From NCBI GenBank assembly GCA_013215605.1, contig JABSQW010000044.1, positions 5,532-69,531 of the forward strand: a stretch of DNA of 64,000 bases. The letters are read 5' to 3'. This stretch comes from Myxococcales bacterium (GTDB lineage Bacteria > Myxococcota_A > UBA9160 > SMWR01). Each line of letters begins with the position of its first letter. Within the stretch, counting starts at the first letter, position 1. Made by a program: the position numbers and the translations under genes. A model generated the notes under the pieces. That model made no database searches. It saw only the letters and a list, made by a program, of their open reading frames with translations, and was not told the DNA's origin. Positions 27,002-55,256 of the stretch are shown piece after piece.

Positions 27002-27829
27002 CTACCGGTACGAGTGGGCGTCGTCCGGGAACTTCTCGTTCGCCACCTCTTCGGCGAACGTGCGTGCCGCCGAGGACGCCACAGCACCGAGATTCGCGTA
27101 CTGCTTGACGAAGCTCGGCGTCCAGTCGGAAAGCCCCAGAAGATCGTGCATGACCAGCACCTGACCGTCGCAGTGAACCCCCGCGCCGATGCCGATCGTC
27201 GGGATCGAGAGCGAGTCGGTCACCTCGGCCGCGAGCTCGGCGGGCATGCCCTCGAGCACCACGGCGAACGCGCCAGCGTCCTGTACGGCCTTCGCGTCGT
27301 CGAGGACGCGCTGTCGGCTCTTCTCGGTGCGCCCCTGGACGCGGTGCCCCCCCATGCGGTGGACCGCCTGGGGGGTCAGGCCGACGTGGCCCATCACGGG
27401 GATCTCGGCTACGACGATTCGCTCGATCGCGGAGGCGACCGCCTTCCCTCCCTCGAGCTTCACCGCCTGGGCACCGCCTTCCTTGACGAAACGGATCGCG
27501 CTGCGAACGGCGTCTTCCGCGCAGACCTGGTAGCTGCCGAACGGCATGTCGCCGACCACGAGCGCCCGCTGGGCGCCGCGCGCGACGAGCCTCGTGTGGT
27601 AGATGACCTCGTCGAGGGTGACCGGGAGCGTGGTCTCCACTCCCTGAACGACATTGCCGAGTGAGTCCCCCACCAGCAGGACATCGATTCCCGCGGTGTC
27701 GAAGATGCGCGAAAACGTGAAGTCGTAGGCGGTCAGCATGCTGATCTTCTGCCCGCGGCGTTTGCGTCGGGCGAGACCGGGGACGGTGACCCGGTGTTCT
27801 CGTGTGGACTCGATCGTTACGGATGACAT
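27002..27829 (-). CDS. panB: 3-methyl-2-oxobutanoate hydroxymethyltransferase
   Basis: KISMLTAYDFTFSRIFDTAGIDVLLVGDSLGNVVQG...VKLEGG...GHVGLTPQ matches PanB. Confidence 0.95.
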   Translation of the reverse strand: MSSVTIESTREHRVTVPGLARRKRRGQKISMLTAYDFTFSRIFDTAGIDVLLVGDSLGNVVQGVETTLPVTLDEVIYHTRLVARGAQRALVVGDMPFGSYQVCAEDAVRSAIRFVKEGGAQAVKLEGGKAVASAIERIVVAEIPVMGHVGLTPQAVHRMGGHRVQGRTEKSRQRVLDDAKAVQDAGAFAVVLEGMPAELAAEVTDSLSIPTIGIGAGVHCDGQVLVMHDLLGLSDWTPSFVKQYANLGAVASSAARTFAEEVANEKFPDDAHSYR

Positions 27830-27910
27830 GGCGCCTCCAGGTCCCCTTCACGGTCGCCTTGCGCGGCTGTCCTGCCTCGATGCTGGCCATCGAATCCGAG
27901 ATGTGTCCGG

Positions 27911-27952
27911 AAAAGAAAAAACGCGCCGACCGGAAAAGAGTCCGGAGGCGCG
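27911..27952 (-). terminator. intrinsic (rho-independent) terminator 82 nt upstream of panB ATG
   Basis: Minus strand reads CGCGCC-U-CCGG, loop ACUCUUUU, CCGG-UC-GGCGCG, followed by UUUUUUCUUUU. Confidence 0.75.
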
Positions 27953-28160
27953 GCGTGTCGAGCGGTGGAACGGATTCCGGGGCGCTCGAGGATTCGCCAG
28001 TTCAGCCCCCGTCTCGCTCCCTGTTGACCGGGATACGAGCGTAGTCTGAGTTTTGGCGGCTTCATCTGTTCCGGTCGCACCCGACTGTCGGCCAGCTCGC
28101 GTGACGCCCGGTGGGGGGTTTCGTCAAATGAGGATCGCTACCTGCGAGACCTCTCTGAGT
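27953..28160 (-). ncRNA. candidate structured leader RNA or sRNA upstream of panBCD (class unassigned)
   Basis: Non-coding stretch between a promoter-like element and the terminator. Nested complementary segments are GUCUCGC/GCGAGAC, ACCGGG/CCCGGU and GCGAGC/GCUCGU. No credible ORF is present. Confidence 0.4.
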
Positions 28161-28167
28161 CACTGAA

Positions 28168-28197
28168 AGCGTAGATCCCCGCACTCGATGCCGTCAA
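28168..28197 (-). promoter_or_regulatory. sigma70-like promoter candidate for the panBCD leader/sRNA
   Basis: Minus strand TTGACG (28197..28192), 18 nt spacer, TACGCT (28173..28168), about 20 nt after the stop of the upstream small gene. Confidence 0.45.
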
Positions 28198-28216
28198 CCC
28201 CGATTCTCTATCGCCA

Positions 28217-28522
28217 CTAGAACACGTTTCGGCCCGCCTCGGGATCGGGGGCCTCGAGCCGCTCGCGGACGGCGGGCGAGAGGTAGCGGGTCTCGAGGAA
28301 CTTCGAGCAGTGGTCGCGCAGCGCCCCCACCAGCACCGCGATGCGCGCCTCGACGGGCTCCTGGCGTGACAGCAGCACCCAGCGCGCACCGCGCAGCACG
28401 CACACCCCGCTGGTCGCAACCGGTTCGCCATCGACCCCGGCCCCCGGTCGCATCGAGTCGACCCGCAGCCCGGCGGCTTCTGCGAGCGCGGACAGCTCGT
28501 CGAGGAGGGACTCGGGATTCAC
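28217..28522 (-). CDS. hypothetical protein (101 aa), translationally coupled to rsmA
   Basis: GTG start overlaps the rsmA stop (GTGA). Codon third positions are GC-biased like neighbouring genes. I recognise no family. Confidence 0.55.
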   Translation of the reverse strand: MNPESLLDELSALAEAAGLRVDSMRPGAGVDGEPVATSGVCVLRGARWVLLSRQEPVEARIAVLVGALRDHCSKFLETRYLSPAVRERLEAPDPEAGRNVF

Positions 28523-29433
28523 GCCTCCGCCCCGCTCCGTCCATCTGCGCGCGGTCGCCAGCCGCGCGTGCGCAGCTCGGCCACGAACGTCGCAAACTGC
28601 GGGGCGGTCAACACTTCGGCGCGGACGCCGGCATCGACCCCGGCTGCTGCCAGCGCTGCGCGGACGTCTTCGGCGGCAACCGGCGGATCGAGGCCCCCGC
28701 GCAGGGCGTTCGCGAGCGTCTTGCGTCGTGTCGAGAACGCCGCCCGCACGACGATCTCGAAGCCCGCCATTTCGGCCGGGGTCACGATCGGATCGTCGAT
28801 CGGAGTCAGTCGGAGGAAGCTCGAACGAACCTTCGGAACCGGGTAGAAGTGGTTCGGAGAGATGCCGAGCTTCCGATCGACGCGGACCGCGGAGTGGTGC
28901 AGCACGGTCAGCGAACTGTAGTCGCGTGTTCCCGCCGTTGCGACGAGGCGATCCGCCACCTCGCTCTGCACCATCACCGACCAGTCTTCGAGCGCTTCGC
29001 GGAGATCGAAGACGCAGCGCAGCAGTGGACCGGTGACCGAGTACGGCAGGTTCGCCACGAGACGCACCGGGCCCTCGACTGAGGCGACGATCGCTTCGAG
29101 GTCGACGTCGAGGACGTCGCCGTGGACGAGCTCGACGTTGTCGGGAAGGAGCGCCTCCGAACGCAACGCCCTGACGAGTCCCGCGTCGACTTCGATGGCC
29201 ACGACCCGTCGCGCGCGCTTCGCGAGTGCCAAAGTAAGCTGACCGAGACCCGGGCCGATCTCGACCACCGTATCGTCGGGCGAAACGCCGGCCGCCGCGG
29301 CGAGGCGCTCCGCCATGGTGGCGTCGACGAGGAAGTTCTGACCCAATCGCGGGTTGGGACGAAGACCGTGACGCTCGAGGAAGCCGCGAACCCCGGCGCG
29401 AGAGATCGGCGCTATTCCGGCGTCGGCGCCCAC
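28519..29433 (-). CDS. rsmA: 16S rRNA (adenine1518-N6/adenine1519-N6)-dimethyltransferase RsmA/KsgA
   Basis: GLRPNPRLGQNFLVD...VVEIGPGLGQLT...NLPY motifs. The start is uncertain. GTG 29433, overlapping the tsaD 3' end, is the nearest canonical start; the ORF-track start at 29547 is too long. Confidence 0.88.
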   Translation of the reverse strand: MGADAGIAPISRAGVRGFLERHGLRPNPRLGQNFLVDATMAERLAAAAGVSPDDTVVEIGPGLGQLTLALAKRARRVVAIEVDAGLVRALRSEALLPDNVELVHGDVLDVDLEAIVASVEGPVRLVANLPYSVTGPLLRCVFDLREALEDWSVMVQSEVADRLVATAGTRDYSSLTVLHHSAVRVDRKLGISPNHFYPVPKVRSSFLRLTPIDDPIVTPAEMAGFEIVVRAAFSTRRKTLANALRGGLDPPVAAEDVRAALAAAGVDAGVRAEVLTAPQFATFVAELRTRGWRPRADGRSGAEA

Positions 29434-30440
29434 GGCGCGGCCTCGATGGGCACCCGGGAGAACGAGTTGAGCTCGAGGCCGTGGCGTTCTCCGCCGACCA
29501 GTAAGCGGGTTCCGGCGCTCGCGATCATCGCCGCGTTGTCGGTGCACAACTCCGCGGGCGGAAACGTGACGCGAAAGCCGTCGTCTCTACCGGCGCGCGC
29601 CATGTCTGCGCGCAGGCGCCGGTTTGCCGCGACACCCCCCACCACGGCCACCTCGCCGAGGCCCTCCGCGCGAATCGCCTTGCGCGCCCGCGCCACGAGG
29701 ACGCCGATGGCCGCGGCCTCGAAGGACGCCGCGACGTCGGCGACGTCCTCTTCACCGAGCGCACCGCGCCGCTCCACCTCGAGCGCGACCGCGGTCTTGA
29801 GACCGCTGTACGAGAAGTCGAGGCCGTCGCGATTCAACATCGGTCGGGGAAACGCGATCGCATCGTCGCGGCCGCGCGTGGCCGCCTGCGACACGGCGGG
29901 CCCACCCGGGTAGGGGAGACCGAGCAGCACCGCGACCTTGTCGAACGCCTCGCCGACCGCGTCGTCGCGCGACGTCCCGAGCAACGCCGGAGCGCCCTGC
30001 TCCTCCACGCGGTACAGCGACGTGTGGGCTCCCGACGCCACGAGCCCGATGTACGGCGCTGACAGATCCGGGTCCGCGAGCTCCGCGGATGCGAGGTGCC
30101 CGGCCAGGTGGTGCACCCCGACCACCGGCACCCCCAGCCGATACGCCAGAGACTTGCCAAACGACAGCCCCACCAGCAGCGACCCCACGAGGCCGGGCCC
30201 GGCGGTCACGGCGACGCCATCGACCTCCTCGAGTCCCACCGCCGCCGTGCGGAACGCCTCCTCGACCACCGCCGACACCACCCTGACGTGATCACGCGAC
30301 GCGAGCTCCGGTACTACGCCCCCGTACGGCGTGTGTACGTCCACCTGCCCGCGAACCACACTCGACAGGATCTCGATCCCGTCGCGCACGAGTGCCGCGG
30401 CCATTTCGTCGCAGGAGGACTCGATACCAAGAACGAGCAT
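29412..30440 (-). CDS. tsaD: tRNA N6-adenosine threonylcarbamoyltransferase TsaD
   Basis: MLVLGIESSCDEMAAALV..., HHLAGH metal motif and GGVAAN. ATG 30440 is preferred; the longer ORF to 30695 is rejected. Confidence 0.95.
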   Translation of the reverse strand: MLVLGIESSCDEMAAALVRDGIEILSSVVRGQVDVHTPYGGVVPELASRDHVRVVSAVVEEAFRTAAVGLEEVDGVAVTAGPGLVGSLLVGLSFGKSLAYRLGVPVVGVHHLAGHLASAELADPDLSAPYIGLVASGAHTSLYRVEEQGAPALLGTSRDDAVGEAFDKVAVLLGLPYPGGPAVSQAATRGRDDAIAFPRPMLNRDGLDFSYSGLKTAVALEVERRGALGEEDVADVAASFEAAAIGVLVARARKAIRAEGLGEVAVVGGVAANRRLRADMARAGRDDGFRVTFPPAELCTDNAAMIASAGTRLLVGGERHGLELNSFSRVPIEAAPWAPTPE

Positions 30441-54983: not shown

Positions 54984-55256
54984 GTTGGAAACCTCCAGTG
55001 AGCCCGCGGACGCTGGCGAGCGCCGGGAGGATGCGCGGGCGACGCAGACTCACCTCGGCAGGCGCACGTGTCAAGCGCTTCCGGGGGACGCTCGCGAGCC
55101 GTCCTACCGAGCGCCGTCCTCTGCCTCGGAAGACAGGGAGGTCGCCGAGCACGGGGCGCAAAGCCCACGCTGAGTTTCGTGGTGCTCGAGGTTCGGATGG
55201 GCGATAACTCCTCCACCCCCCCCCACAGTCGGCGACCGGAGGAATGCACGGCGCAC

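Follow-up and report, generated by a model that had tools for sequence, protein, structure and literature searches.

A panBCD leader RNA in a Myxococcales bacterium read as an expanded variant of the pan motif with the layout of a transcription attenuator

In its original description, the pan RNA motif (RF01749) is a stem bearing two conserved bulged adenosines that occurs, mostly in tandem, upstream of panB, panC, or the gene for aspartate decarboxylase (PMC2864571; Weinberg et al. 2010), and its describers considered that it might be a binding site for a dimeric protein (PMC2864571). Transcriptome papers locate the motif in the 5′ untranslated regions (UTRs) of pan operons, and no report of a pan effector or ligand since 2010 was found in the literature searched. 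The present analysis concerns the noncoding gap directly upstream of panB in a 64,000-nt stretch of DNA from a Myxococcales bacterium (GenBank assembly GCA_013215605.1, contig JABSQW010000044.1, positions 5,532 to 69,531), referred to below as the window. On comparative sequence grounds, the RNA encoded by this gap is read as an expanded pan variant in which both pan hairpins are present and are split by an insertion of 80–110 nt, and the gap is probably the 5′ leader of panBCD, organized as a transcription attenuator built on the pan motif.

On the minus strand, the window contains, in order, tsaD, ksgA (28519–29547), an open reading frame (ORF) for a 101-residue protein, a gap of 387 nt (27830–28216), panB (27002–27829; Pfam PF02548, E 2.4e-114), panC, and panD. 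The limits of the gap, which had been given in an earlier reading of the sequence made without database searches (the sequence-only reading), agree with the sequence and the ORF list. Relatives were collected by two routes. A scan of species-representative genomes based on panB yielded 80 loci, and the four nearest (L001–L004), from metagenome-assembled genomes (MAGs) labelled Myxococcota, delta proteobacterium, and, in one case, Spirochaetales, have panB identities of 73–79%; the gap is kept in L001–L003 (nhmmer E 2e-8 to 2e-4), and its conservation in L004 was recognized by eye in the alignment. A degenerate DNA pattern derived from the most conserved stretch of the gap retrieved at least 120 metagenome stretches. 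In 116 among the matches listed, panB or, on cut contigs, the conserved upstream genes adjoin the RNA, panB having the same orientation where it is present, and the gene order is ksgA, 101-aa ORF, RNA, panB, panC, with the small ORF absent from two of the 116. Conservation upstream of panB in relatives, which the sequence-only reading had named as a check, is therefore found in four MAGs and 116 listed metagenome contigs, together with covariation. Four other pattern matches (L106, L112, L120, and L140) were rejected as chance, being without flanking genes and lying inside long ORFs in three cases and at the end of an ORF in L106. One metagenome contig, SPKZ01016816.1 (L104; 9846 nt), matches the window with 100% identity over ksgA, the small ORF, panB, and panC and probably comes from the same organism or assembly.

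The window RNA folds with an energy of −107.8 kcal/mol as compared with −95.6 ± 5.0 kcal/mol for shuffled sequences (z = −2.4), a somewhat more stable fold than the shuffles give. Helices were assigned in an alignment of 74 relatives (A2) from RNAalifold, pair counting, and inspection by eye, and from these a covariance model of 153 positions and 35 pairs, R1, was built. The window matches R1 at 27996–28165 on the minus strand with 66.6 bits (E 8e-12), and the relatives match it with 59–134 bits. In the model alignment of 91 sequences, 93.9% of cells are paired, against 88.1% in shuffles and 35–50% when the partners are slid; changes on both sides are present at 19 of the 35 pairs, against 10.0 ± 1.2 in shuffles, none of 500 shuffles reaching 19, and the covariation score is 0.181, as compared with 0.087 for shuffles and at most 0.064 for the slid controls. 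This covariation supports three local hairpins, designated P1, P2, and P4, and most of the signal comes from P1 (8 of 12 pairs) and P2 (six of seven), to which P4 adds four pairs. The sequence-only reading had instead proposed nested complementary segments, GUCUCGC/GCGAGAC, ACCGGG/CCCGGU, and GCGAGC/GCUCGU. These exist as strings but not as helices: GUCUCGC is the 5′ strand of P1 and GCGAGAC the 3′ strand of P4, and the remaining two string pairs lie within P2 and P4. A long-range helix between GUCUCGC and GCGAGAC has no both-side change in the 91 relatives, and its scores equal those of shuffles; that it is nevertheless 74% paired is explained by the resemblance of P1 and P4 to each other.

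The bulge on the 3′ side of P1, at 28129 in the window, is an A in 90 of 91 relatives, a count that is free of bias from the search pattern, whereas the bulge on its 5′ side is C in 47 and A in 44 of the 91 and is C in the window; the family consensus for this hairpin is CGA-GGGGU-[A/C]-UCGC..GCGA-[U/A]CCCC-A-UCG. P4 has the family consensus CG-CUCGG-A-UCC..GGA-CCGAG-A-CG, with bulged residues at 28034 (5′ strand) and 28012 (3′ strand) that are A in 91 of 91 relatives, both having been fixed by the pattern. In the linker between P2 and P4, the segments CGCC and GCCC, which lie outside the pattern, are at least 90% conserved. The window is among the most divergent copies, having a long insertion in P2 and the linker GAUGAAGCCGCC in place of GAGACGACGCC. 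The linker segment GAGACG was considered by eye as an alternative partner of the P4 5′ strand and was rejected, since it does not track the C-G change of the L004 group. A very weak match of R1 elsewhere in the window (55073–55196, plus strand; 10.1 bits, E = 6.7) is most likely due to chance.

The connection with pan was found through weak partial matches of R1, in the region of P4, directly upstream of panB in Binatia, Desulfuromonadales, and other loci; an Rfam scan of 20 such loci gave one true pan match, in L010 (37.2 bits; threshold 36.2). In this match, the RF01749 consensus consists of hairpin 1, uGGgcgGU-A-UC..GA-ACcgc-A-CCa, a linker of about 31 nt, and hairpin 2, CuGCCUgG-A-UCc..gGA-CcGGG-A-CaG, followed by AaGG. 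Family P4, CGCUCGGAUCC..GGACCGAGACGG, is nearly the same in sequence as hairpin 2, uGCCUgGAUCc..gGACcGGGACaG, and both have two bulged A residues, whereas P1 shares the layout of hairpin 1, consisting of 3 bp, a 3′ bulged A, 5 bp, a 5′ bulge, and UC/GA. Both RNAs therefore have tandem hairpins with one bulge per strand, 5 bp apart, in which the 3′-side bulge is a conserved A; P1 (28157–28125) and P4 (28041–28010) follow each other in the order of pan hairpins 1 and 2, and a purine tail finishing in AGG is also shared. Like pan, the window RNA directly precedes panB, panC, and panD, as do its counterparts in the four genome loci. In L004, RF01749 is the best of the sub-threshold matches to P4 (19.4 bits, E 0.27) and aligns with P1 as well (12.8 bits, E 8.4), the two hairpins following each other as in pan, with the alignment to P1 running from model position 1 through hairpin 1.

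The differences from described pan RNAs are also clear. The two hairpins are 80–110 nt apart (83 in the window) as compared with about 31 Rfam consensus positions, and the insertion contains the covarying P2, which has no counterpart in the Rfam pan model, as well as the conserved CGCC and GCCC. An extra box, GGGGGCG, separates hairpin 2 from the AGG tail; about half of the copies, including the window, have C as the 5′ bulge of hairpin 1, so that P1 shares the bulged-A feature in part; and the variant found in the window occurs in Myxococcota-like MAGs. The sequence-only reading was correct in noting that the leader is longer than one pan hairpin, but it set the motif aside too quickly, since both pan hairpins are present and are split by the insertion.

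The promoter sequence TTGACG-N18-TACGCT (28197–28168) had been recognized in the sequence-only reading, and comparison of 98 distinct upstream sequences shows the motif TTGMY-N16-18-TAnnnT in 87 of them, with a spacer that varies in sequence; in these 87, the end of the −10 hexamer is 8–14 nt from the GAGGGG of P1, which places the predicted transcription start near 28161. The terminator hairpin and U tract (27952–27911), also recognized earlier, are found in about 90 distinct relatives. A simple consensus scanner reported neither element because the −10 hexamer is weak (three of six positions match TATAAT) and the terminator stem is bulged, but the comparative sequence data show that both are real. 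From the end of the terminator stem to the panB start, the median distance in 89 relatives is 48 nt, including the U tract and ribosome-binding site; the distance of 92 nt in the window is among the longest, with the U tract ending 82 nt ahead of the ATG at 27829. Since 48 nt is too short for a second promoter, panB must be transcribed through the terminator, and this necessity favors a leader that acts in cis over a free-standing small RNA (sRNA). The read-through architecture proposed in the sequence-only reading has thus held up, in that the leader acts in cis, has its own promoter with a terminator between it and panBCD, and includes a structured part that is conserved and covarying.

The region 3′ of P4 contains, in order, GACGGGGGCG, the tail that finishes in AGG, a variable hairpin (P5), and the terminator. 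The 5′ strand of the terminator, CGCCUCC, lies outside the search pattern and is near-invariant in the 91 relatives, including its unpaired U (89 of 91), whereas the internal loop that opposes it has 16 variants. The G-rich box next to P4 can form 7 bp with this strand, and its complementarity is 96–100% at six positions and 77% at the seventh. The pair at position 6 of the box is C-G in 78 sequences, U-G in seven, and U-A in two (L092 and L200), both of which have a mismatched partner in the terminator. For transcripts that are without the 5′ strands of the putative aptamer and end before the 3′ strand of the terminator, minimum-energy folding yields the antiterminator in 90 of 91 relatives, and it yields the terminator in 72 of 91 once this 3′ strand is present; in the window, a forced antiterminator costs 3.4–4.7 kcal/mol over the minimum-energy fold. 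The complementarity, the asymmetry in conservation, and the two compensatory cases suggest an alternative pairing between box and terminator. The box also serves as the 3′ strand of a further proposed helix, P3, so that closure of the pan domain would keep it from acting as antiterminator and permit termination. The leader thus has the generic organization of a riboswitch, a conserved and covarying structured domain beside an expression platform with a predicted switching pairing. In L010 (2854–2950; a Desulfuromonadales MAG), the bona fide pan match is followed by an intrinsic terminator, GCCUUUCUGAC..GUCGGGAAGGC, and a U tract. The tail of its hairpin 2, GGAAGGC, is complementary to the 5′ strand of this terminator, GCCUUUC, a further likeness to the window leader, and the attenuation logic may apply to classical pan RNAs also.

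In the model favored here, the sigma70-type promoter would start an RNA of about 250 nt that would fold into P1 and P4, corresponding to pan hairpins 1 and 2 with two bulges each, separated in this case by the insertion with the third hairpin, P2, and the conserved single-stranded CGCC/GCCC. An effector that holds the pan domain closed would keep the G box paired upstream (as GCCC:GGGC in the family and as UCAG:CUGA in the window), allowing the terminator to form and transcription to stop 82 nt before panB. When the pan domain is not closed, the G box would pair with CGCCUCC and block the terminator, and the polymerase would read into panBCD. Conservation, promoter, hairpins, terminator, gene linkage, and the resemblance to pan are observations; the alternative pairing of box and terminator, the off-when-bound direction of the switch, and the kind of effector are what we infer.

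It should be noted that several results weigh against this interpretation. Because the search pattern itself fixed most of P4 and the first five G residues of the G box (GGGGG), the invariance of these segments in the 116 metagenome copies is uninformative, and the window and four genome loci are the only unbiased sequences there. P3 (GCCC:GGGC) has a both-side change at one pair only, and the window is out of register for it, although UCAG (28049–28046) can pair with CUGA (28005–28002) as an alternative. An outer closing helix between CGCC(U) of the linker and (A)GGCG of the tail, attractive by eye in L001 and L101, was rejected because the covariation is unsupportive: native linker-tail duplexes have an energy of −9.29 kcal/mol versus −9.22 kcal/mol for cross-paired ones, and 1809 of 5000 permutations are as low. 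Compensation in the antiterminator amounts to two sequences, one of which (L200) has a poor terminator, and L126 compensates within the terminator instead. Finally, Rfam 15 was applied to the whole window at gathering score and to sub-regions of 901 nt and 71 nt at E ≤ 10, and RF01749 matched the window in neither; it also did not match L001, and none of 20 family members tested reached its gathering threshold (36.2 bits). Homology with pan is thus indicated by one sub-threshold double match, by the resemblance in layout and sequence, and by gene context.

The same searches bear on other identities for the RNA. Nothing in the whole window reached a gathering score, and the scan for pan, 6S, and all other families that the sequence-only reading had recommended gave no minus-strand match in the sub-regions even at E ≤ 10; a plus-strand match to Cupriavidus-1 (27922–27988; 19.4 bits versus 45.5, E = 3.1) is noise, arising from the reverse complement of the terminator and P5. 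That the leader is a divergent 6S or other housekeeping RNA, for which the sole point was the likeness, noted in the sequence-only reading, of GAAGCCGCCAAAACUCAGACUACGC to a stretch of Escherichia coli 6S RNA, has therefore almost nothing to recommend it: no 6S or housekeeping family was matched in these scans, the supported structure consists of local hairpins and not of a closed rod with a central bubble, and the similar stretch is the atypical linker of the window, in the least conserved part of the family alignment. A stand-alone, trans-acting sRNA with its own promoter and terminator, panBCD having a separate promoter, was also suggested in the sequence-only reading and would be in keeping with the conserved promoter and strong terminator, which would yield a discrete RNA of about 250 nt whenever termination occurs, and with the 82 nt between the U tract of the window and the ATG. 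We regard it as very unlikely, since the median distance of 48 nt in relatives would not accommodate a promoter and 5′ UTR, all 116 genuine copies listed adjoin panB or, on cut contigs, the conserved upstream genes, and the hairpins are common to a motif known only from the 5′ UTRs of pan operons. A reversed logic, in which the effector stabilizes the antiterminator, or a constitutive terminator that lowers read-through from the upstream operon, appears improbable, though less so than an sRNA. The direction of switching is deduced only from the overlap of strands, and the terminator is thermodynamically favored in the full-length platform in 72 of 91 relatives, but a constitutive terminator would need neither an invariant 5′ strand opposite a variable loop nor a dedicated promoter and a conserved upstream domain of 150 nt. 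Against reversed logic, it can be said that end-product repression is the common logic of biosynthetic operons.

Within the attenuator model, two kinds of effector have to be weighed, and we lean slightly toward a dimeric protein rather than a pathway metabolite. The former, an RNA-binding protein that is perhaps a pathway enzyme acting on its own mRNA and that would read the bulged-A hairpins P1 and P4, is a possibility that falls short of an even chance. It accords with the dyad symmetry of the hairpins, each of which has a central block of 5 bp with a bulge on each strand and of which there are two per leader, with the conservation, as opposed to covariation, of the stem sequences GGAUCC, GGACC, and GAGAC across distant taxa, and with the dimeric protein-binding motif proposed in the original description (PMC2864571). 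The distance between P1 and P4, however, varies by tens of nucleotides, and no candidate protein is offered by the neighboring 101-aa ORF, as discussed below. A true riboswitch would differ only in its effector: P1, P2, the linker, and P3/P4 would form a pocket that binds pantothenate, CoA, 4′-phosphopantetheine, pantoate, β-alanine, or a related compound directly. This is a more doubtful proposition, although the conserved part is large (about 150 nt with 35 modeled pairs) and has strongly conserved, aptamer-like unpaired segments (CGCC, GCCC, and GACGGGGGC), the conserved domain is immediately followed by the switching strand, an arrangement seen in terminator-type riboswitches, no regulator gene is co-conserved with the motif across phyla, the 101-aa ORF being clade-specific, and the genes controlled belong to one biosynthetic pathway, which suits feedback by an end product. 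On the other hand, pan is at its core a simple hairpin with dyad symmetry, usually occurring in tandem, that was read as a dimeric protein site (PMC2864571), Binatia loci seem to have a single hairpin, which is small for a pocket, no ligand has been reported since 2010 in the literature searched, and the stem sequences are conserved and do not covary freely. The stronger proposal that the enlarged pan domain (P1, P2, linker, P3/P4, and G box) is by itself a sufficient aptamer for a metabolite of the pantothenate/CoA pathway is rather unlikely.

The coordinates of the elements of the leader, and of related hairpins in other loci, are collected in Table 1.

Table 1. Elements of the panBCD leader (window coordinates) and pan hairpin 2-type hairpins in Binatia (coordinates of the locus named)
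Feature	Coordinates	Strand	Basis
−35 hexamer TTGACG	28192–28197	−	Sequence reading; TTGMY at same relative position in 87/98 distinct relatives
−10 hexamer TACGCT, N18 after −35	28168–28173	−	TAnnnT 16–18 nt after −35 in 87/98 relatives
P1: CAGA-GAGGU-[C]-UCGC, loop AGGUA, GCGA-UCCUC-[A]-UUUG	28125–28157	−	Both-side changes at 8/12 pairs, 91 relatives
P2: base CCGG/CCGG, long apical insertion in window	28071–28111	−	Both-side changes at 6/7 modeled pairs
Linker AACAGAUGAAGCCGCCAAAACUCAGACUA	28042–28070	−	Family consensus ..cag..acg.CGCC.......GCCC.......; window deviates
P4: CG-CUCGU-[A]-UCCC, loop GGUCAACA, GGGA-GCGAG-[A]-CG	28010–28041	−	Both-side changes at 4 pairs
G box GGGGGC (family GGGGGCG), putative switching strand	28005–28010	−	Partner P3 or terminator GCCUCC 27949–27944
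P5 spacer hairpin UCGAGCG ... CGCUCGA	27958–27989	−	Minimum-energy fold; hairpin in relatives varies in length and sequence
Intrinsic terminator hairpin CGCGCC-U-CCGG, loop ACUCUUUU, CCGG-UC-GGCGCG	27922–27952	−	Sequence reading and conservation
U tract UUUUUUCUUUU	27911–27921	−	5–10 U among 12 nt after stem in 83/89 relatives
Shine-Dalgarno GGAGG (27838–27834) and panB start codon ATG (27829–27827)	27827–27838	−	Sequence reading, ORF list, Pfam
Binatia hairpin, L005	2766–2826		
Binatia hairpin, L007	2779–2831		
Binatia hairpin, L008	2857–2882		
Binatia hairpin, L027	2802–2855		

The Binatia MAGs have a hairpin of the pan hairpin 2 type (CGCUUGGAUCC ... GGACCGAGACGG), apparently single, just upstream of panB; in L005, L007, and L027, it lies directly 3′ of an apparently conserved upstream coding region, and none of these three or L008 has a match at any Rfam gathering score. 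The Binatia hairpins suggest that the curated model underestimates both how widespread the pan motif is and how often it occurs as a single hairpin. Desulfuromonadales loci likewise have a P4-type hairpin near the panB start, on its upstream side, and hairpins that resemble this type are also present upstream of panB in a Terriglobia (L047) and a Polyangia (L009) locus. R1 matched L047 and L009 over its full length, but the part of these matches aligned to hairpin 1 was rejected as spurious, since it overlaps an apparently conserved upstream coding region; R1 also matched L073. In two unrelated loci, L010 (6122–6478) and L114 (4891–5255), a tmRNA gene is located a few kilobases downstream of the pan operon, a proximity that is probably coincidental.

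The 101-aa ORF (28217–28522, minus strand) ends right at the leader promoter. It is kept at the same position in nearly all loci of the family, with 38–63% identity, and is missing from L118, L175, and every panB locus outside the family. No sequence match to it was found in Pfam, NCBIfam, or the PDB, and a single-sequence AlphaFold model had a pLDDT of 68 and gave nothing below E = 2.6 in a Foldseek comparison with the PDB. As a candidate effector it was rejected: it has no sequence or fold match, the model is mediocre, and the ORF is specific to the clade and does not accompany pan RNAs outside it.

The pan motif has been an orphan since 2010, although it precedes vitamin B5 genes in several phyla; Bacillus subtilis is one bearer of a classical pan RNA. 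The leader described here is a new, expanded variant of this orphan motif and is neither 6S RNA nor an independent sRNA, and the lineage that carries it, a whole clade of pan relatives that the curated Rfam model misses, supplies a larger and more informative version, with a promoter mapped by conservation and three covarying hairpins. Its clear terminator/antiterminator layout provides a concrete candidate mechanism for pan, attenuation via a G-rich switching strand. Should the effector be a metabolite, this would be the first pantothenate/CoA riboswitch, filling a long-noted gap, and would settle what pan senses; should it be a protein, the hairpins would be a ready-made bait with which to find it.

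Among other known systems, 6S RNA (RF00013 and related families) is similar in size class (about 200–250 nt) and in having its own promoter and terminator, but the leader of the window is strictly linked to panB and is without a closing rod or central bubble. A closer likeness is with terminator/antiterminator riboswitches and protein-dependent attenuators, which also consist of a promoter, a sensor domain, a strand with two partners, and a terminator before the first gene. Examples of the protein-dependent type are the pyr leaders controlled by PyrR and the RAT hairpins bound by antiterminators of the LicT/SacY type. There is no sequence or family relationship between these systems and the leader of the window, which matched no Rfam leader or riboswitch family in the scans described above (gathering score for the window; E ≤ 10 for the minus strand of the sub-regions). 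RAT hairpins, which a protein dimer recognizes, are pseudo-symmetric stems in which A residues are bulged or looped, and P1 and P4 are likewise symmetric stems with a bulged A. The two differ in the consequence of binding: in the RAT systems, the hairpin that is bound is itself the antiterminator, whereas in the panBCD leader, the bound domain would withhold the antiterminator strand.

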